Shown: positions 1-9,231 of the stretch, in pieces
How the letters are laid out: each line of letters begins with the position of its first letter
How positions within the stretch are numbered: position 1 is the stretch's first letter
Source of the DNA: Phototrophicaceae bacterium
Lineage (GTDB): Bacteria > Chloroflexota > Anaerolineae > Aggregatilineales > Phototrophicaceae
NCBI GenBank assembly: GCA_965205125.1
Contig: CBDBFY010000003.1
Location: 1,240,179-1,304,178, forward strand
Length of the DNA: 64,000 bases
Direction of reading: 5' to 3'
Program-made: the position numbers and the translations under genes
Notes under the pieces: generated by a model
Database searches by the model: none
Told to the model about the DNA's origin: nothing
What the model saw: the letters and a program-made list of their open reading frames with translations, nothing else

Positions 1-75
1 CGCGCTGGATATTTATTTGCTCTTTCGCGTGATCGTGCCGGGTTTGTCGCCTTGACAACAAGCTCAAACGCAGGC

Positions 76-101
76 GGGCGACCCAATGGCTCGCCCCTAC
101 A
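76..101 (-). repeat. REP-like palindromic element, family TGTAGGGGCGAC-loop-GTCGCCC (reverse orientation)
   Basis: gggcgacccaatggctcgcccctaca read directly. The same palindrome family recurs at many intergenic sites in this window. Confidence 0.8.
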
Positions 102-116
102 GCATTCTAAAGCAAT

Positions 117-1191: not shown

Positions 1192-1599
1192 TTAGTCTGA
1201 AGGCGGAGGCAATCCCGCGTCCACCCAACGTCGTCTCGCGCGGACGGCGCCGCGGCGGTTTATCCGCAAGCGCGACACAGTTGCCCTGCCCAACGCGGAC
1301 AGCCCGACCAGTTGCGTCTTCTCGTCGTCCCAGCGAAAGTGGTCGTTCCAATTTTGATTTCTAGGGTTGAACAAGGCAGTTTCAGGATCAATGGCAGCCA
1401 CAAAGTCGCGCTTGAACATGTTGCAACCGACACATGACAGACACAGATTGCTTAAGGATGTTTTGCCTTCGCGAGACACCGGGATAATATGATCGATTTC
1501 CATTTCGATCACGATAGTTTTTTGTGTCTGGCAGCATTCGCATTGACCTCGCGCCCGTTCAGTAATCTGTTGTCGCAGGCGGGCAGATATCCACGCCAC
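1192..1599 (-). CDS. HNH (His-Me finger) endonuclease, small stand-alone type
   Basis: CECC...DHIIPVSREG...NLCLSCVGCNMFK gives the CxxC / DH / N / CxxC HNH signature. The GTG start lies 3 nt after the stop of the upstream gene. Paralogue at 8225..8647. Confidence 0.85.
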   Translation of the reverse strand: MAWISARLRQQITERARGQCECCQTQKTIVIEMEIDHIIPVSREGKTSLSNLCLSCVGCNMFKRDFVAAIDPETALFNPRNQNWNDHFRWDDEKTQLVGLSALGRATVSRLRINRRGAVRARRRWVDAGLPPPSD

Positions 1600-1602
1600 T
1601 CG

Positions 1603-2007
1603 CTAAGCCCCAAGTTTGAGCAGTTTGTCGATATTGTGCCCGCGCCTTTTCATCTGAAGCAAAGCCTCTGAGCGCAACAGCACCTGATGATCAAACTTAG
1701 CGACCAAGTCCTCCATTTCGACGATCTCTTCCTCAGTGACCTGTCCCAATTGACCAAGCTGCATAAGTTCGCGCAGGCGCGTGTTGTGCGGCCAAGCCAA
1801 GCGCTGATGCACGACAGCTAACAATTGCTCGTCGCCAAAATCTTTCAACGCCTCCGGCTTTAGCGCCATATCAGTCAACTCGCCAAACAGCATAGCCAAG
1901 CTTTCCAGCAGCACGGATTCGGCAGTCCTATTGGTCTCGCCAGCGATTTCTTCCGCGCGCTCATAAATCGCAGCAGGCACTTTCAATTCCTTAGTCGGCT
2001 CTTGCAT
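1603..2007 (-). CDS. Helical protein of unknown function, upstream partner of the HNH nuclease
   Basis: 134 aa, ATG with GGAGG 10 nt upstream. The C-terminal motif DEQLLAVV...RLRELMQLGQLGQVTEEEIVEMEDLV...LLQMKRRG matches the repeat unit of the protein at 8644..9168. Confidence 0.7.
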   Translation of the reverse strand: MQEPTKELKVPAAIYERAEEIAGETNRTAESVLLESLAMLFGELTDMALKPEALKDFGDEQLLAVVHQRLAWPHNTRLRELMQLGQLGQVTEEEIVEMEDLVAKFDHQVLLRSEALLQMKRRGHNIDKLLKLGA

Positions 2008-2069
2008 AAGCCTTTGTCCTCCGCTTCGTCACATTCATTGTAACGGAGCAGCGCCAGCGCAGTTGTCCG

Positions 2070-3368
2070 CTATTTTCCCCGCCGCCCATGACAACGCTTG
2101 AACTTCAGCCCGCTGCCACAAGGGCAGGGATCATTTCGTCCCGCCGCCGCGAAAGCCCGCTCCAACTCGGCATCGTAGCGCGCCAACTCCAGCATCACAT
2201 TCGCCGGCGGTCGCCGCGCCGCCAATTCGCGCGCCATGAAATTCATCGTGGGGCGCACGTGATTGAAGAAGGCGCGATAACCGGCGCAGAGATAATTCAA
2301 GCCGGGCTCGCCAGCGGGGGTCTCAATGAAGCGATTCTTGGGGCAGCCGCCATTGCATACGAACTTCACTTCACAGTCAAGGCAATATTGCGGCAGCGTA
2401 TCGCGCTTGTCTTGGCCAAACTTGATCTGCTCATCCATCACCACGATATCGCTCAGCGGCACGTCCATGATGTTGCCCAATTTGTAATCGGGCTCGACAT
2501 AATGATCGCAGGAGAAGACATCGCCATTATGCTCCATCGCCAGCGCCAGGCCGCAGGTCTCGTCAAAGATGCAGAGCCCGGGCGGCGCGCCCGTCCAGGC
2601 GGCCAGCGCGATATCAAAGATCTGCACGAAGACCTGCCCAACATCGCGGCGCACCCACTCCTCGTACATATCGATCAGGAATTGCCCGTAACCCGCAGCG
2701 GTGATTGAGCGCTCGGTGACCTGGTCGCCCTCTTGATAACCGGTCTCATTATCGCGCTCGACGATGGGAATGAACTGCATGAACTTCGTACCGACTTCAT
2801 CACGCAGAAATTCATAAACGCGCGCGCCCTGCCCCTCGTTGGCGGCGTGCACCGTAGTCAGGATGTTGTATTCGGCGCCGTGCTTCTGCAGCAGCCGCAG
2901 CCCCGCCATCACTTTATCGAAGGTGGGATTGCCGCCCTTGTCCACGCGGTAGAAATCGTGCACATCAGCCGGACCATCGAGGCTGACCCCCAGCAGGAAG
3001 TCGTTGGCGGCGAAGAATTCGCACCATTCGTCATCCAGCGTGACCGCGTTCGTCTGCAGGGCGTTGGTGATGCGCATATGCGGGCGCTTGTGCTTCTGCT
3101 GATAACGGACCGCCTGCCGAAAGAATTCGACGCCCATCAAGGTCGGCTCGCCGCCCTGCCAAGCGAAATTGATGTCGTTGACCTGCTGCGCCTCGATGTA
3201 CTGGCGGATGTATTCTTCGAGCAAATTGTCCGACATGCGGAACTTGCTGCCGGGATAGAGCGCTTCTTTGGAGAGGAAATAGCAGTACTTGCAGTCGAGG
3301 TTGCAGATCGCGCCTCGCGGCTTGGTCATCAGGTGGAAAGCGGTGGGTTGTTGCGTGGTGGTTTGCAT
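2070..3368 (-). CDS. Anaerobic sulfatase-maturating enzyme (radical SAM/SPASM) with C-terminal SEC-C zinc motif
   Basis: ORF 2070..3596 trimmed to the ATG at 3368 (MQTTTQQPTAFHLMTKPRGAICNLDCKYCYF). It carries the CxxxCxxC radical SAM motif, Cys-rich SPASM region (CDHY..., CLDCEVKFVCNGGCPKNR) and terminal CPCGSGLKFKRCHG. Confidence 0.88.
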   Translation of the reverse strand: MQTTTQQPTAFHLMTKPRGAICNLDCKYCYFLSKEALYPGSKFRMSDNLLEEYIRQYIEAQQVNDINFAWQGGEPTLMGVEFFRQAVRYQQKHKRPHMRITNALQTNAVTLDDEWCEFFAANDFLLGVSLDGPADVHDFYRVDKGGNPTFDKVMAGLRLLQKHGAEYNILTTVHAANEGQGARVYEFLRDEVGTKFMQFIPIVERDNETGYQEGDQVTERSITAAGYGQFLIDMYEEWVRRDVGQVFVQIFDIALAAWTGAPPGLCIFDETCGLALAMEHNGDVFSCDHYVEPDYKLGNIMDVPLSDIVVMDEQIKFGQDKRDTLPQYCLDCEVKFVCNGGCPKNRFIETPAGEPGLNYLCAGYRAFFNHVRPTMNFMARELAARRPPANVMLELARYDAELERAFAAAGRNDPCPCGSGLKFKRCHGRRGK

Positions 3369-3392
3369 GGTGGGGAGTATAGCACGTTTTGG

Positions 3393-3427
3393 TTGAACAA
3401 CAGAGGACGCAGAGGGCGCGGAGAAAA
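3393..3427 (-). repeat. CTCYGYG-repeat / GTNAA promoter-like element (family copy A)
   Basis: The reverse complement reads ttttctccgcgccctctgcgtcctctgttgttcaa. It lies 25-60 nt upstream of the anSME start in sense orientation. Confidence 0.45.
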
Positions 3428-3490
3428 GCGGCGTTAGTGCGGATATGTTAGACTTGTGCCAGATTAGACACCACGATAGGAAAGCAACAG

Positions 3491-4540
3491 ATGAGCTTGT
3501 ACGACGAGTTGGCGAAGATTGGTCAACAGGTGAAGAGCCAGTTGCCGCAAATGAAGAATAACGAAAAGGCGACGATAAATGTGTCTGTACTGCCATTTAT
3601 CCGCGCGCTCGGCTACAACACCGAGGATCTCAGCGAAGTCTTTCCCGAGTATTCCATTCTTAATATGGATGCTGTCGACTACGCGGTTCTGCGTAATGAC
3701 GTGCCAGTTATGTTCGTTGAAGCAAAGTCGGCAGGCAACAAACTCCAAAACAAGGAATGGAAGCAACTCTTCCAATATTTCAATGCGGAAATCGGCTTGC
3801 CATTCGGCATCTTGACCAGCAGCGTCGAATACCGCTTTTACACCGATCTCGAAGCGGAAAATATTATGGACAAAGAGCCATTTCTCACCATTGATATGCT
3901 GAAGCTCGACGAGCGGCTGGTGGCCGAATTGGAAGGCTTAACAATGTCCGGCTTTGATCCCGAACGCGTCGTTGACGGTGCGAGGAAACGGGTCCTGGCG
4001 CGACTGTTGAATCAGGAAATGAACAATCCATCGGATGAAATTGCGCGGTACTTCGCGAAACAATTGACGACAAAGCGCTTGTCTTCCAATGAGTTACGAT
4101 ATTACGCGGGGTTGCTCGGTAAGGCTTGGCAAGGGTTGGTTGAGGCGAAGATTGGGCCAGTCCGGCCGATCGCAAATAATGGTGATAATAACCGGCCAAA
4201 GCCTCCGCCTCCACCCCCACCGCGCGAATTCATCCCAGTCTTTGGCTACTATGAAGGACACAAATTCAAAGGGGAACTGCTACGGACAAGTGTCGAAAAT
4301 GGATTGACCATTGCTGGCAATCAAATACGTTATAACGGAAAGACAACACGGCTTAAGGACGCGGCCATCATGGCCATACGTACCGTCGATCCGTCTTTTA
4401 AGCCGAAGAGAACCTATCCTAATGGATTCCAATTCTGGCATGTGGTTGACCCGGCCGATGGAAAGGAACACGAGATAAGATTTGTTTCTGGATGGGATGT
4501 GACGGACGAAGCGCTGCGTCAGCGTGTACTGTCGTCGTAG
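3491..4540 (+). CDS. PD-(D/E)XK nuclease (HsdR N-terminal-like) fused to Pro-rich linker and C-terminal reader-like (RAMA-like) domain, paralogue 1
   Basis: 349 aa. LPFIRALGY...PEYS...DAVDYAVLRNDVPVMFVEAKSAG...FGILTSSVEYRFY gives an E...D...ExK nuclease pattern. A PPPPPPP linker follows. The C-terminus has IPVFGYYEGHKFKGELL...NGFQFWHVVDPADGKEH. Confidence 0.8.
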   Translation: MSLYDELAKIGQQVKSQLPQMKNNEKATINVSVLPFIRALGYNTEDLSEVFPEYSILNMDAVDYAVLRNDVPVMFVEAKSAGNKLQNKEWKQLFQYFNAEIGLPFGILTSSVEYRFYTDLEAENIMDKEPFLTIDMLKLDERLVAELEGLTMSGFDPERVVDGARKRVLARLLNQEMNNPSDEIARYFAKQLTTKRLSSNELRYYAGLLGKAWQGLVEAKIGPVRPIANNGDNNRPKPPPPPPPREFIPVFGYYEGHKFKGELLRTSVENGLTIAGNQIRYNGKTTRLKDAAIMAIRTVDPSFKPKRTYPNGFQFWHVVDPADGKEHEIRFVSGWDVTDEALRQRVLSS

Positions 4541-4720: not shown

Positions 4721-5806
4721 ATGGACCTAAACGAAAAACTGCAAAAGCTATCGGGCGAAGTCGAGTGGAGACTGCCCGCCGCGAAACGGAGCGAGGCAAA
4801 CACAAGTCAATTCCTGGTGATGCCGTTTTTCGACGCTCTCGGATACAACGTGCATAACCCTAAGCACGTCGAGCCTGAGTTCACGGCCGATGTCGGCATC
4901 CAGCGCGAAAAAGTAGACTTCGCGCTCAAGCAAGATGGCAATCCCGTTATACTGGTCGAAGTGAAATACGCGGGCGCAAGTCTTGATAACCAACACGCTG
5001 CACAGCTAAGGCGCTATTTCAGCACCAAGCTGGAAGTTCGCTTTGGCATACTCACTAACGGTCTCGATTTCCGCTTTTTCTCAGATCTCGAGAATCAGAA
5101 TGTCATGGACGACGAGCCATTTCTAACACTTGATTTGCAGAATCTCGATGAATCCTTGCTGCATGTATTGGAACAGTTTTCTAGAACAAGCTTTGAGAAG
5201 AACAACGCGATTCAGGCGGCGCGGTCGGCGAAAGACAGACAACGGGTGCGCCAGGTTATAAGCGCCGAATTTGACCCACTCTCAAAAGGGATCATAGACT
5301 ACCTTGTCGGTATTCTTCAGCCCGGCCGAATGTCGCAGACGCGGCGAAACGAGTTGACACACTTGGTCAAGCAGGAGTGGCGAGAGTTCATTCCTTTGCA
5401 GGGTTCACGAACAGATTCTGAAACTCACGAAGAGCCGCCAGAGCCAGAGCCCGTCAAGGCGGCTCCGACTCCCTCCCTGTTTCCACTTGACGGTTCTGTA
5501 AAGATTCCCATATTCGCGACGTTTAAGGGTCATGAATTCGAAGCAAAGCTGTCTCTATGGGGCTGGATACACCCAGCCGCAGCAATAGTCTTTTATGAGA
5601 ATGAGTGGTTGACGCCTTTGCAGGCGGGCATAAGAACGCGAGTTTCAGTTGATTCAAGCGCTGGATACTATGTTAATGGAATGAAATATTGGCACTTGCG
5701 TGATACAGCAAACGGGAAGTTGCGCCCGATTAACGACCTGAAGAATGACGAAGCACTACTGCGCCGTCTATTGGGCGGTAGCTCAGCAGCCTCCCCAGCA
5801 AAATAA
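4721..5806 (+). CDS. PD-(D/E)XK nuclease (HsdR N-terminal-like) fused to reader-like (RAMA-like) domain, paralogue 2
   Basis: 361 aa. MPFFDALGY...EPEFT...REKVDFALKQDGNPVILVEVKYAG...FGILTNGLDFRFF. The C-terminus has IPIFATFKGHEFEAKLS...NGMKYWHLRDTANGKL. Collinear with the 3491..4540 protein. Confidence 0.8.
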   Translation: MDLNEKLQKLSGEVEWRLPAAKRSEANTSQFLVMPFFDALGYNVHNPKHVEPEFTADVGIQREKVDFALKQDGNPVILVEVKYAGASLDNQHAAQLRRYFSTKLEVRFGILTNGLDFRFFSDLENQNVMDDEPFLTLDLQNLDESLLHVLEQFSRTSFEKNNAIQAARSAKDRQRVRQVISAEFDPLSKGIIDYLVGILQPGRMSQTRRNELTHLVKQEWREFIPLQGSRTDSETHEEPPEPEPVKAAPTPSLFPLDGSVKIPIFATFKGHEFEAKLSLWGWIHPAAAIVFYENEWLTPLQAGIRTRVSVDSSAGYYVNGMKYWHLRDTANGKLRPINDLKNDEALLRRLLGGSSAASPAK

Positions 5807-5869
5807 ACGTAAATCTCGGTACCCTCAGTAATTCCAAGTAAGTAATTGAAATTTGAATATAGTAACTGA

Positions 5870-6924
5870 ATGGAGAAAAAATCGAAATACCACTTGTCCG
5901 AAGTTCAGGTGCAAGTTCTGGAAAGAGCAATGCATAACGATGCTCGTGCTGAGGTGGCTCTGCGCTGCGCTGCTATACGCCAGTTGCATCTTGGCGAGAA
6001 GCCTTCTGATGTCGCCCAGCATTTTGTCGTCTGCAACACTACTGTATATCGATGGTGGAATCTTTATTGCGCAGGAGGAATTGAGGCTCTTAGCAATCGC
6101 TCCAAGTCGGGGCGTCCGCCAAAGACTGATGCGGCATATTGGCAGCGGTTGGAAGAGTTGATCGAGGAGGACCCGCGCGAGCATAACTATGTGTTCGTGG
6201 TTTGGACAACGGGTCGATTGCGGGACCATATGGAAGTTGAAACGGGTATTCGAATCAGTGCGGAATGGCTGCGCGAGCAAATGAAGAAACTGGGCTACGT
6301 CTTCCGGCGTCCCAAGAAGGATTTGCGCCATCTGCAAGATCCGCAGCAACGCGATGCAGCGGACAAATGGCTGAAAGACGCCAAAAAAAAGCCAGTGCCG
6401 CAGAGGATTTCGAGCTTCTCTTTGTGGACGAAAGCACCGTGACACAAGATTTCTCAATTCGCGCATGTTGGATGAAACGCGGAAAACAGAAGCGCCTACC
6501 AGCGCCGCCTGGCGCCAATGCCTTTCACCATGTGATCGGAGCGCTGAACTGGCGCAGCCAACAGGTCGCCTACACCATCGTAAAAACCAAGAACAGCGAG
6601 ACCTTTATCGAGTTTCTTGAATATCTGCTTCATGTCGCCTATCCGCAAGAGCGGGTTGTCCTGGTCATGGACAATGCGCCATGGCATCGCAGCCACGCGG
6701 TACAAGCCATGCTCAGCCTATACGAAAGTCGGGTGCTGGTCATTTGCTTGCCACCTTATTGCCCAATGCTCAATCCCATCGAGCGATTCTGGCGTCATAT
6801 GAAAGACAAAGCCTATGCCAACACCCTATACAAGTCGATGAATGACTTGCTCGAAAAGGTCCAAGAAGTGCTATCAGCACAGAACACAATCGGCCACCCC
6901 TTACGGATGCAATTTGTTGCATGA
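5870..6924 (+). CDS. IS630-family DDE transposase, two frames joined by a -1 frameshift
   Basis: ORF 5870..6442 encodes the HTH part (SDVAQHFVVCNTTVYRWW). ORF 6265..6924 encodes the DDE part (LLFVDES..., VLVMDNAPWH..., LPPYCPMLNPIERFW). The frames differ by -1 and overlap at the A8 run. Confidence 0.85.
6383..6390 (+). other. Slippery A8 run, candidate programmed -1 ribosomal frameshift site of the IS630 transposase
   Basis: gcc aaa aaa aag in frame 0 (DAKKK). A -1 slip gives ...KKASAAEDFELLFVDES, which continues into the DDE domain. Confidence 0.65.
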
Positions 6925-6940
6925 CTTACTTGGTGTTACT

Positions 6941-7079: not shown

Positions 7080-7319
7080 ATGGCAGTTCAAAGCAACGTC
7101 GAAGACGACTTTGTCCACGAGACCGTCAGCCGCCAGGTCGAACAAATTGCAAAACTAGAGGCTAGCCATGAGCATATGGCCAGTAAGGCAGATATTGAAT
7201 CTCTCCGTACTGAGATGGAAAAGCTGAAATCGGACTTGACCTGGAGAATCGTCATCGCCATGAGTATTATGACAGCCATCTTTGCCGCGATTGTTAGACT
7301 GCCGGCAGCAGGTGCATAG
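7080..7319 (+). CDS. Small coiled-coil protein with C-terminal TM helix (DUF1640-like)
   Basis: 79 aa, GAGGAGA 5 nt upstream of the ATG. ASKADIESLRTEMEKLKSDLTWRIVIAMSIMTAIFAAIV resembles DUF1640-type tail-anchored coiled-coil proteins. Confidence 0.6.
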   Translation: MAVQSNVEDDFVHETVSRQVEQIAKLEASHEHMASKADIESLRTEMEKLKSDLTWRIVIAMSIMTAIFAAIVRLPAAGA

Positions 7320-8243
7320 TCACCGCAGCTTCGCCATCACACTCCGCAACCCCACCGGCAACTCGCTCACGAAAACCAGCCGCTCACCACTCACCGGATG
7401 GTCAAAGGCCAACTCATGCGCGTGCAGGAACTGCCGCTTCATTTTCACTCGCTGCTTCCGATACCCGTAGACCGCATCCCCCACAACGGGACAGCCGATG
7501 AATGCCATGTGCACACGAATCTGATGCGTCCGTCCGGTCAGCAGCTTCAAGCGCACAAGAGCGCGATCGCCCTGGAAGTCATCATCGAGCACTTCGAATT
7601 CGGTCTGCGCCGACTTGCCCGCTCGATGGACCGCCATGCGTTTGCGCTGCCGCGGATCGCGGGCGACTGGCGCGTCGACCGTGCCTCGATTCGACGCCGG
7701 CCGCTTCTCCAGCAGGGCCAGATAAATCTTGTCCACCGTCCGCGCTTGAAACTGCCCCATCAGCGCCAGCAGTGTCGCCCTGTCGCGAGCCGTGACAATC
7801 AGTCCGCTTGTGCCCCGATCCAGCCGGTGGACGATGCCCAGCCGCTCGCCGACCGCCGGGTCGTCCATCATATCCGCCAGTTCCGGGTAGCGCGCCAGCA
7901 GCGCATTGACCAGCGTTCCGCTCTCGTTGCCCGCTCCGGGATGAACCACCATGCCGGCCCGCTTGTCAATGACCGCCAGGTCTGCGTCCTCATAGACGAT
8001 GTTTAGCGGAATGTCTTCCGGCTCTATCGAGGTCTCCTCCTTCGGCGGAAAGCGCACGGTGATCTGCTCGCCGCCTTTGAGTTTGTAGCCCGTCTTTTGC
8101 GCCGCGCCATCAACCAGGACGCAGCCCTCGCGGATCAGAGCCTGCGTCTGCGCGCGCGAAAAGCCTTCCAGATGCGCCAGGAGGAATTTGTCGAGACGTT
8201 GATTCGGTCTGTCTACGAGGAGGGTTAGGAAGTCTTCTGGCAC
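7320..8243 (-). CDS. rluD: RluA-family 23S rRNA pseudouridine synthase, RluD-like (S4 domain + catalytic HRLD)
   Basis: 307 aa. QRLDKFLLAHLEGFSRAQTQALIREGCVLVDG is the S4 domain. HRLDRGTSGLIV is the catalytic Asp motif, with HQIRVH also present. Confidence 0.88.
   Translation of the reverse strand: MPEDFLTLLVDRPNQRLDKFLLAHLEGFSRAQTQALIREGCVLVDGAAQKTGYKLKGGEQITVRFPPKEETSIEPEDIPLNIVYEDADLAVIDKRAGMVVHPGAGNESGTLVNALLARYPELADMMDDPAVGERLGIVHRLDRGTSGLIVTARDRATLLALMGQFQARTVDKIYLALLEKRPASNRGTVDAPVARDPRQRKRMAVHRAGKSAQTEFEVLDDDFQGDRALVRLKLLTGRTHQIRVHMAFIGCPVVGDAVYGYRKQRVKMKRQFLHAHELAFDHPVSGERLVFVSELPVGLRSVMAKLR
7323..7344 (+). repeat. Copy 3 (the genuine rluD 3' coding end) of the triplicated sequence
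   Basis: ccgcagcttcgccatcacactc encodes the C-terminal SVMAKLR on the minus strand. Confidence 0.8.
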
Positions 8244-8647
8244 GGGTAGTTGCCCAGCAGGTATTCCCTAAAACGTTGCCGAATGCGAGAAGCGGCATTC
8301 ATTCGCAGAACGAATACTGTTGTCCGACCTTCGGGAGTAAGACCAATAATCGACGCATCTGGATTGACACGAAAATGTTCATCCCAGCTATCCAATCGCG
8401 GATGAAACAGTCTACTTAGTTTGTCGGTTTGTGGGTCATATCCAGCAACATTGACGCCCTTGAAGCGGTTGCAATCCGGGCAAGCCAGGCAAAGATTCTC
8501 ATCGTTGTCATCACCTCCATGACTACTCGCAATGATATGATCAACGTGAAATCCTAGAGATTGGGATCCTCTTCCAACGCGACAGTATTCGCAGCACCCT
8601 GACGCCAGAATGTGAACTGTATGACGCTGCTGCGCAGAGATCGTCAA
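8225..8647 (-). CDS. HNH (His-Me finger) endonuclease, paralogue of 1192..1599
   Basis: CCEYC...VDHIIASSHGGDDNDENLCLACPDCNRFKG. Collinear with the HNH at 1192..1599, including LFHPR..W..HF and GLTPEGRTTV. The TTG start overlaps the upstream stop (TTGA). Confidence 0.85.
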   Translation of the reverse strand: MTISAQQRHTVHILASGCCEYCRVGRGSQSLGFHVDHIIASSHGGDDNDENLCLACPDCNRFKGVNVAGYDPQTDKLSRLFHPRLDSWDEHFRVNPDASIIGLTPEGRTTVFVLRMNAASRIRQRFREYLLGNYPCQKTS

Positions 8648-9168
8648 GTCTCAATACCTTGCCGTCTCAACTCAGTACTCACTTTCAGCAGCGCCATGAA
8701 TCTGTTTGCTCGAAGGCAATCGTCCAACTCGCGCTCTTCGAGTATAGTCAGCTCACCCTCGCCGTTGCGGTCGAGTAGAAAATGAACTCGCGCCTGTATG
8801 TCTTCGGGAAACATAAATGCGAGTAATTCATCATCTGTAGGATCAGAAGTCAAGAACTCAGCTACTGCATCAGGAGCACTTCGCACTGGCGAATCATTCA
8901 AGGGTTCTTCTCGTCTGTTCTTGCCCTTTTGCCGCAACCTAATCTTTGTTTTGAGCAGACTAATCATGTTGTCGGCATATACGAAGTCATCTAACTCATT
9001 TCGCTGCTCACAGGTCAACTCGGATTCCCGATTGAGGTACAGCAGATGGCTCACGCGCTTTTGCAGATCATCCGGCAGCTTATAGGCGAGAAGCTCGTCA
9101 ACTGTTGGGTCATCCGCAAGAAAGTCGGTAATGACGGCAAAGACATCACGTGCTGGCGTTTCTATCAT
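8644..9168 (-). CDS. Helical two-repeat protein of unknown function, upstream partner of the HNH nuclease
   Basis: 174 aa, AAGGAG 8 nt upstream of the ATG. It holds two internal ~70-aa repeats: DELLAYKLPDDLQKRVSHLLYLNRESELTCEQRNELDDFV and DELLAFMFPEDIQARVHFLLDRNGEGELTILEERELDDCL. Confidence 0.75.
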   Translation of the reverse strand: MIETPARDVFAVITDFLADDPTVDELLAYKLPDDLQKRVSHLLYLNRESELTCEQRNELDDFVYADNMISLLKTKIRLRQKGKNRREEPLNDSPVRSAPDAVAEFLTSDPTDDELLAFMFPEDIQARVHFLLDRNGEGELTILEERELDDCLRANRFMALLKVSTELRRQGIET

Positions 9169-9231
9169 GGCAGTTGCTCCTTTACCTCCGGCCCATTATA
9201 ACCTGAAGTCAAACAAGATTCAGCAAGCGCG

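Follow-up and report, generated by a model that had tools for sequence, protein, structure and literature searches.

Results

Two modules of a small helical protein and an HNH nuclease

This study concerns a 64,000-nucleotide stretch of DNA from a Phototrophicaceae bacterium (Chloroflexota; contig CBDBFY010000003.1, positions 1,240,179 to 1,304,178), hereafter the window, and two copies of a two-gene module within it, in which the gene for a small helical protein (the partner) is directly followed by the gene for a small HNH nuclease. A preliminary description of the window had reported two such modules with the same order and orientation; their coordinates hold, and both lie on the minus strand. 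In module 1, the partner A1 (2007..1603; open reading frame (ORF) and translation) starts with ATG and comprises 134 amino acids (aa), and the nuclease H1 (1599..1192, 135 aa) starts with a GTG codon 3 nt past the A1 stop, the junction reading TAG-CGA-GTG. In module 2, the partner A2 (9168..8644; ORF, ATG start) comprises 174 aa, and the nuclease H2 (8647..8225, 140 aa) starts with a TTG codon that overlaps the A2 stop as TTGA. Both partner genes have the strong Shine-Dalgarno sequences previously ascribed to them, GGAGGA at 2022..2017, 9 nt ahead of the A1 start codon, and GGAGG together with AAGGAG ahead of that of A2. Neither H1 nor H2 has a ribosome-binding site of its own. A hidden Markov model (HMM) of the A1 family, searched against all six-frame ORFs of the window, matches A1 and A2 alone (E 6.5e-5), leaving the number of module copies at two.

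Each module is preceded by a short leader with a -10-like hexamer about 30 nt ahead of the ATG codon, TACAAT (2042..2037) in the leader and probable promoter of module 1 (2008..2069, minus strand) and TATAAT (9200..9195) in the putative leader of module 2 (9169..9208, minus strand). In an alignment of 11 orthologous loci, TACAAT is the sole conserved intergenic block ahead of A1. A scan for full sigma-70 consensus matches found none ahead of module 1, and its promoter is thus counted as putative. A search for inverted repeats that could serve as operators returned none ahead of A1 and one weak palindrome, which lies inside the start of A2.

Both modules had been described as richer in AT than the neighbouring core genes. 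Relative to the GC content of the window (0.591, standard deviation 0.041 in 800-nt windows), this clearly applies to module 2 (0.486-0.492, 2.5th percentile) but only mildly to module 1 (0.526-0.547, 13th percentile). The modules had further been proposed to bracket an island containing a nuclease reader and an IS630 element. They do so by position. However, a 4.47-Mb relative shows the same gene order, with GalE-like, A2, H2, RluD, HSDR_N, radical-SAM/SPASM/SEC-C, A1, H1, RidA and EF-P, in the absence of IS630, so that the modules are not the ends of a mobile unit or island. The flanks of closer loci likewise carry the same neighbours as the window modules.

The nucleases resemble the nuclease domain of PtuB

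Both nucleases belong to the HNH superfamily, matching the Pfam HNH family PF01844 at E 1e-9 (H1, 38.6 bits) and 9e-11 (H2, 42.2 bits), with a cut-off of 21.4 bits, and they are collinear paralogues, as first noted from the sequence (38% identity, E 3e-26). An alignment of 28 family members shows invariant residues at C20, C23, H37, N51, C56, C59, N60 and K63 and, in a C-terminal block, at F77, R80, W84, H87 and F88, all of which are kept by the window proteins. H1 contains the catalytic D36-H37, N51 and N60 as well as the four zinc cysteines of a CxxC...CxxC zinc finger. It departs from most relatives by a 4-residue deletion after DPET and by the exchanges Y22C and H131P. Its ratio of nonsynonymous to synonymous substitutions (dN/dS) against ten orthologues is 0.07-0.16, which marks it as a constrained gene despite these three oddities (the comparison of the window with the H gene of locus L010 was excluded as a misalignment artefact). 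For A1, the corresponding ratio is 0.16-0.26. Both genes of module 1 are therefore under purifying selection.

Among the families of the PADLOC collection, the best match of both nucleases is PtuB (E 1.6e-12 for H1 and 1.8e-13 for H2), with only the nuclease domain covered. Residues 7-126 of H1 align to positions 46-164 of the 216-position profile, after which 9 residues remain. In PtuB, the HNH domain with its four-cysteine zinc finger spans residues 1-152 and is followed by a C-terminal domain at 153-216 (PMC12673091). The same relationship emerges at the structural level. In a Foldseek search with the AlphaFold2 (AF2) model of H1 (mean predicted confidence, pLDDT, 85.2), the best matches are the PtuB chains of retron Ec78/Eco7 and E. 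coli Septu, which extend over the whole length of the protein (query-normalised TM-score, TMq, 0.60-0.68; probability 1.0), whereas Cas9, McrA and Cap5 match the H1 core only (TMq 0.33-0.42). Judging from these lengths, H1 looks like the nuclease domain of PtuB alone.

The public gene calls for three H1 homologues (P0285, P0279 and P0297) are 105-109 aa long and start at an internal methionine corresponding to Met34 (MEIDHII..), with the loss of the first CxxC motif; given the conserved GTG start codon 3 nt past the partner stop, these calls are truncated. A further protein, P0110 (207 aa), was considered as a fusion of partner and nuclease but reads as a frameshifted low-quality sequence, and it was not used as Rosetta-stone evidence.

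The partners share a conserved helical core

A1 consists of an N-terminal ribbon-helix-helix-like domain (residues ~1-41) and a helical C-terminal domain (residues ~50-134). Its AF2 model (pLDDT 83.7) comprises an extended N-terminus, helices at residues 12-25 and 29-41, which together give a strand-helix-helix arrangement, and a five-helix domain that is predicted as a confident fold (pLDDT 86-95). Several N-termini in the A1 family match ribbon-helix-helix families in Pfam (RHH_5 and FitA-like_RHH in 8/65 members, RHH_1 in 4/65, and Arc as well), and the profile of the family matches Arc/CopG chains in the PDB at E 0.007-0.05; A1 of the window itself has no Pfam ribbon-helix-helix match. Scans of Pfam, PADLOC and PHROG assign A1 to no curated family, A2 likewise matches no PADLOC family, and a fold search with the A1 model in the PDB and among viral models returned no significant match, only local ones to Arc/CopG and to the YnzC hairpin.

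A2, by contrast, lacks a ribbon-helix-helix domain and is composed of two tandem helical units (residues 1-83 and 84-174) that are 44% identical to each other (E 5e-22). Single-unit A2-type partners occur in tandem modules of the relatives L006, L007 and L010, and the proteins P0102-P0106 contain the two units in reverse order. Based on these arrangements, the A2 double unit probably arose by fusion of tandem modules.

The two partners had been credited with a common repeat motif. A direct comparison of A1 and A2 by BLASTP is not significant (E 3.4), but similarity appears at the level of profiles: hhalign links the 65-member A1-family profile with the A2 family at 76.6% probability (E 2e-5, 54 columns), and the short partners of Chloracidobacterium and of cyanobacterial plasmids match both the A1 and the A2 HMM. 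The common core reads ..E(L/Q)L...(L/F)P...Q.R...L......G.LT..E..EL..L. The profile-level link of A2 is to the helical C-terminal domain of A1, and no other part of the partner is as well conserved as this domain. A1 and A2 are thus taken as members of one superfamily, related at the profile level only. The earlier impression that this family is uncharacterised proved correct. The only catalogued families it touches are DUF7667, which 5/65 members of the A1 family match weakly past the N-terminus, and DUF7161; A2 gives weak matches, and two A2 homologues carry precomputed PF23720 matches. DUF7667 and DUF7161 are families of no known function, for which we found no literature.

The module is widespread in Chloroflexota and on cyanobacterial plasmids

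The partner family is large. Among 1.84 billion cluster representatives, its profile retrieves 1,246 clusters (50% identity) at E <=1e-3 and 389 at 1e-10. A genome scan yielded 42 loci, all of them in Chloroflexota (Anaerolineae, Aggregatilineales, Phototrophicaceae), and the sequencing runs in which the window sequence or a close relative of it is present include sponge metagenomes. As a pair, always with a gap of <=3 nt or an overlap, the module recurs in Chloroflexota, Acidobacteriota and cyanobacterial plasmids. Homologues of the nuclease at 44-50% identity come from Ktedonobacterales, Chloracidobacterium and other assemblies, and in every case the gene immediately preceding theirs encodes a member of the partner family. 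When H1 was searched against plasmids by tblastn, it matched 35 records, cyanobacterial without exception. In 11 of the 12 records examined, the nuclease gene is preceded by an abutting or overlapping gene for a 79-135-aa 'hypothetical protein', all of which match the partner HMM; in the exception (L192), an IS4 transposase occupies the partner position. The plasmid partners were reached via the nuclease, since a tblastn search of plasmids with A1 gave no match. On several plasmids, ParA/ParB, Rep or relaxase genes adjoin the pair (L181, L183, L184 and L187). Tandem duplicates of the module are present in L010 and L180. Defence genes are frequent neighbours (TIR, NB-ARC, type III res, Cas1/2 and HSDR_N), and other neighbours include HicAB, DUF433/DUF5615 and PhdYeFM.

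The pair hardly occurs in phages. A search of GenBank phages with H1 gave no match, the partner belongs to no PHROG family, and only 1/77 HNH matches on viral contigs is of the full-length H1 type, in degraded form, the others sharing the HNH core only.

In two loci, L168 (2145-3423) and L043, a full-length partner is followed after 14 nt by a gene for a 275-aa NYN/LabA-like protein, as read by eye from the sequence, instead of an HNH nuclease. This arrangement may represent a swap of the nuclease partner.

The two genes are inherited together and appear to be lost asymmetrically

The tight junction between the two genes is a conserved property of the module: the 3-nt gap seen between A1 and H1, or a 1-nt TAATG/TGATG overlap, recurs in 31/33 pairs from other genomes, and pairs from soil metagenomes show gaps of -8 to +2. 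The pairwise identities of partners and nucleases correlate (r = 0.84), which indicates co-inheritance and nothing further. Among close orthologues (1192-2007 versus L003-L013), we observed that the two genes, although adjacent, differ in synonymous divergence (dS), which is roughly twofold higher in the nuclease gene than in the partner gene; between the window and L011, for instance, it is 1.09 for the nuclease and 0.41 for the partner.

The preliminary description had asked whether the partner always co-occurs with an HNH gene and had regarded partners that usually stand without one as a refutation. Among 90 partner-anchored loci with room for a downstream gene, 66 contain an intact HNH gene; in the remaining 24/90, the nuclease gene is truncated (7/90) or missing (17/90). 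Conversely, a partner is present in 27/28 HNH-anchored loci, a small set in which nine members are syntenic H2 orthologues. This asymmetry (24/90 versus 1/28) has a Fisher exact p of 0.0075, which changes to 0.07 if truncated genes are not counted as lost. The losses look like decay, as judged from the remnants left at these loci. These include N-terminal nuclease stubs of 33-63 aa and, in L129, the final 15 residues of an otherwise deleted HNH protein, now fused to the partner; in L131 and L174, insertion sequence (IS) elements adjoin the remnants. At the orthologous site of L005, A1 is intact, H1 is gone, and two small gene pairs stand in its place, the larger product of which reads as RelE/ParE-like when the sequence is inspected by eye.

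Neighbouring genes and other features of the window

The next gene upstream of module 1, 62 nt away and in the same orientation, encodes a radical-SAM/SPASM protein whose C-terminus carries a SEC-C zinc motif (2070-3596); relatives keep this gene at the same position. Its longest ORF includes an N-terminal extension of ~60 aa that is not found in relatives (464 aa in L002). At the other module, the H2 stop overlaps the GTG start of a gene for an RluD-like pseudouridine synthase (7320-8243) by 19 nt (8225-8243), and the same overlap is seen in L002; given this arrangement, the RluD-like housekeeping gene may be read from the module 2 transcript.

Between the modules, two plus-strand genes (3491-4540 and 4721-5806) encode paralogous proteins of 349 and 361 aa with an N-terminal HSDR_N domain (type I restriction R-subunit N-terminus, PD-(D/E)xK-like); their C-terminal halves are uncharacterised and include a proline-rich linker. 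The second of the two proteins is a weak match to PADLOC mad2. L002 and L005 have one HSDR_N gene each, compared with two in the window. In the window, the two genes are followed by an IS630-family element (5852-6935). Its transposase is divided between two ORFs that overlap, one with helix-turn-helix (HTH) domains (5870-6442) and one with a DDE_3 domain (6265-6924). Only three sequencing runs contain the locus, all in the form of contigs, which show its presence and the copy number of the IS element and reveal no transcript ends. Contig depth over the element is ~3-4x that of its flanks (735 versus ~200 in run X1), indicating several copies in the genome, and the element is missing from the syntenic regions of L002 and L005. 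A plus-strand ORF of 79 aa (7080-7319) between IS630 and the RluD-like gene encodes a coiled coil and a C-terminal hydrophobic helix; its Pfam matches to CCDC90-like, DUF2730 and XhlA are weak and below the cut-off. Finally, depth rises ~17x over the first ~100 bases of the window (3580 versus 213), and many distinct loose ends begin at 72-106, which suggests that window positions 1-106 are the edge of a short, highly repeated element.

Discussion

A candidate type II toxin-antitoxin-like module

On balance, each of the two modules is probably an uncharacterised type II toxin-antitoxin (TA)-like pair with an HNH nuclease as its toxin. The preliminary description had offered a TA or an immunity-nuclease layout. 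The former has gained comparative support, whereas the latter is not supported, because the nuclease lacks a delivery domain and its gene follows that of the partner instead of preceding it. What we observed concerns gene layout, domain content, fold, conservation and distribution; from there, we infer how the pair would work in terms of binding, inhibition, autoregulation, toxicity, substrate and trigger. In such a module, the downstream gene would provide a minimal PtuB-type HNH nuclease that, if free, damages the cell's own DNA or a tRNA, and the upstream gene would provide its neutraliser, with the helical C-terminal domain of the partner binding the nuclease and holding it inactive. The ribbon-helix-helix domain of A1 would dimerise and repress the module's own promoter, while the tight coupling of the two genes, the weak GTG or TTG start and the lack of a Shine-Dalgarno sequence at the nuclease gene would keep nuclease output under that of the partner. 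Two helical domains per unit could be achieved in either of two ways, through ribbon-helix-helix dimerisation in A1 or through tandem duplication in A2. The nuclease might then be freed when the partner is lost or degraded, when the plasmid is lost or when a phage attacks, and cell arrest or death would follow, an outcome that could stabilise a plasmid or locus or serve as abortive defence.

There is real comparative support for such a function. The modules consist of small co-directional genes with the putative antitoxin first, which abut or overlap and are kept as a pair, and the family is patchy, multicopy and found on plasmids, the window copies being nonetheless syntenic across their lineage. 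Gene order, coupling, protein sizes, the ribbon-helix-helix-like N-terminus, the multicopy patchiness, the par/rep context on plasmids and the asymmetric loss of the nuclease would all suit a TA system. The same holds for the tandem duplicates, the gene pairs with a RelE/ParE-like product in place of H1 in L005 and the neighbouring HicAB, DUF433/DUF5615 and PhdYeFM genes.

Several observations weigh against this interpretation. Throughout a family-level lineage, both window modules keep one chromosomal position, surrounded by housekeeping genes, and are thus more stable than most TA loci. Neither the inverted-repeat search nor the alignment of orthologues revealed a conserved palindromic operator upstream, and A2 lacks a DNA-binding domain, so that autoregulation cannot work in the same way in A2. 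The asymmetry test is suggestive, not decisive, since the HNH-anchored set is small and includes orthologues whose events are not independent. Finally, the toxicity of the Septu and retron Ec78 PtuB requires the upstream PtuA, and the two proteins were expressed separately to spare the cells (PMC12819146), a precedent that raises the possibility of the partner being a scaffold rather than a brake.

Alternative explanations

This precedent leads to the main alternative, although we regard it as unlikely: the two proteins may be obligate subunits of one nuclease, a miniature version of PtuAB without the ATPase, in which the partner is a scaffold or targeting subunit and the complex is the active enzyme. 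Two helical domains would clamp the HNH protein, and the ribbon-helix-helix domain would place it on DNA, in a role in defence or DNA processing. In its most specific form, in which a new helical domain, present twice, clamps a bare PtuB-type HNH nuclease and the ribbon-helix-helix domain directs this minimal Septu-like complex to nucleic acid, the idea is likewise unlikely. The two-subunit reading draws on the fact that the best whole-length structural matches of H1 are PtuB chains, on the order of the genes, which is the same as in ptuA-ptuB, and on the architecture of the known complex, in which two three-helix C-terminal domains of PtuA sandwich PtuB (PMC12673091) and toxicity depends on both proteins (PMC12819146); A1 as a ribbon-helix-helix dimer and A2 with its tandem units would each supply two such helical domains. 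The frequent defence-gene neighbours (TIR, NB-ARC, type III res, Cas1/2, HSDR_N) would suit this role as well. However, H1 appears by length to end where the nuclease domain ends, without the three-helix domain that docks onto PtuA, and the partner resembles PtuA neither in sequence nor in fold. Moreover, intact partners without a nuclease are common and nucleases without a partner rare, whereas a cofactor would not be kept on its own, and a location beside par and rep genes on plasmids suits addiction modules.

It is rather improbable that the pair represents a restriction-like nuclease with a controller, that is, a ribbon-helix-helix protein whose sole role is the transcriptional control of a McrA-like (type IV) or otherwise self-safe HNH nuclease, with no neutralisation by protein-protein contact. 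Some sources name homologues '5-methylcytosine-specific restriction', the HNH core is common to McrA, the pair is preceded by a conserved -10 box, and HSDR_N proteins are encoded between the two modules. Yet the helical core and the tight coupling are also kept by partners without a DNA-binding domain, namely A2 and many of the cyanobacterial ones, and it is this helical domain that is best conserved. In addition, H1 has no reader domain for modified bases and matches McrA over a core of ~70 residues only (TMq 0.42), and the frequent loss of the nuclease fits a costly gene. The third possibility, a mobile homing-endonuclease or phage-packaging HNH protein accompanied by an accessory gene, or what is left of such a system after decay, which the preliminary description had named as a potential refutation, is very improbable: HNH genes are common in phages and A1 weakly matches Terminase_2 in Pfam (E 0.03, below the cut-off), but the phage searches described above argue against it, as do the lack of terminase, portal, intron or intein genes among the neighbours and the purifying selection on both genes at a syntenic site. 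We leave a small chance for some explanation outside those considered here.

Implications

If the modules are indeed TA systems, the repertoire of type II toxins would gain an HNH nuclease, and that of antitoxins a new helical domain for neutralisation. If the partner is instead a targeting subunit, the pair would constitute a new and very compact system for defence or plasmid competition that is common in Chloroflexota and cyanobacteria. In an incomplete literature search, we found no paper on a helical or ribbon-helix-helix partner with a stand-alone HNH nuclease as a TA or defence system; the module is widespread yet, as far as that search goes, unstudied. In the NetFlax network, the sole mention of HNH is a Septu PtuB node paired with an ATPase. 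The partner family is large and common where such modules have been little studied, in Chloroflexota, including sponge symbionts, and on cyanobacterial plasmids. Furthermore, a 135-aa stand-alone relative of PtuB with a small partner would offer a simple system for investigating what this fold targets and how it is restrained. The module also matters for genome annotation, because the GTG or TTG start leads gene callers to often shorten the nucleases to ~105 aa, with the partner left as 'hypothetical'.

Comparison with known systems

The helical core of the partner is touched only by the catalogued families DUF7667 and DUF7161, with all matches of the window proteins below curated cut-offs. 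For the nuclease, the closest known relative is PtuB, which occurs in Septu PtuAB and in the type I-A retrons Ec78/Eco7. H1 shares its fold over the entire length of the protein, has it as best PADLOC family and, like PtuB, combines a four-cysteine zinc finger around the HNH core with a catalytic histidine after an aspartate and a gene position downstream of the partner (PMC12673091). The substrate of PtuB, tRNA-Tyr or DNA, is still debated (PMC12673091). H1 and H2 differ from PtuB in size (135-140 aa versus 205-234 aa) and appear, by length, to lack its three-helix C-terminal domain for docking to PtuA. The partner is a helical protein of 134-174 aa (with a ribbon-helix-helix-like domain in A1), unlike PtuA, which is an ABC/SMC-type ATPase of ~550 aa; among the window ORFs searched with Pfam, no ATPase gene adjoins either module. 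Unlike type I-A retrons, the window modules are also devoid of a retron reverse transcriptase and non-coding RNA.

The modules resemble type II TA systems with ribbon-helix-helix antitoxins (RelBE, ParDE, FitAB and CcdAB-like) in their small size, in the antitoxin-first bicistron with overlapping or abutting genes, in the two-part partner with a putative ribbon-helix-helix and a second domain, in their multicopy patchiness and plasmid location, and in the occurrence of orphan antitoxins. They differ in the C-terminal part of the partner, where a stable helical fold with no known relative takes the place of a short disordered tail, and in that A2-type partners lack a DNA-binding domain. To our knowledge, and as far as our literature search goes, an HNH nuclease is not among the established folds of type II toxins.

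A final point of comparison is provided by the colicin E7/E9 DNases and their immunity proteins Im7/Im9. Colicin nucleases form the C-terminal domain of a large secreted toxin, and their immunity genes come after them, whereas H1 and H2 are small stand-alone proteins of 135-140 aa that, like their upstream-encoded partners, are cytoplasmic. No similarity of the partner to Im proteins was found in sequence or fold. Nevertheless, both systems pair a small all-helical protein with an HNH nuclease, and colicin immunity shows that a helical protein can silence an HNH domain by binding to it directly.

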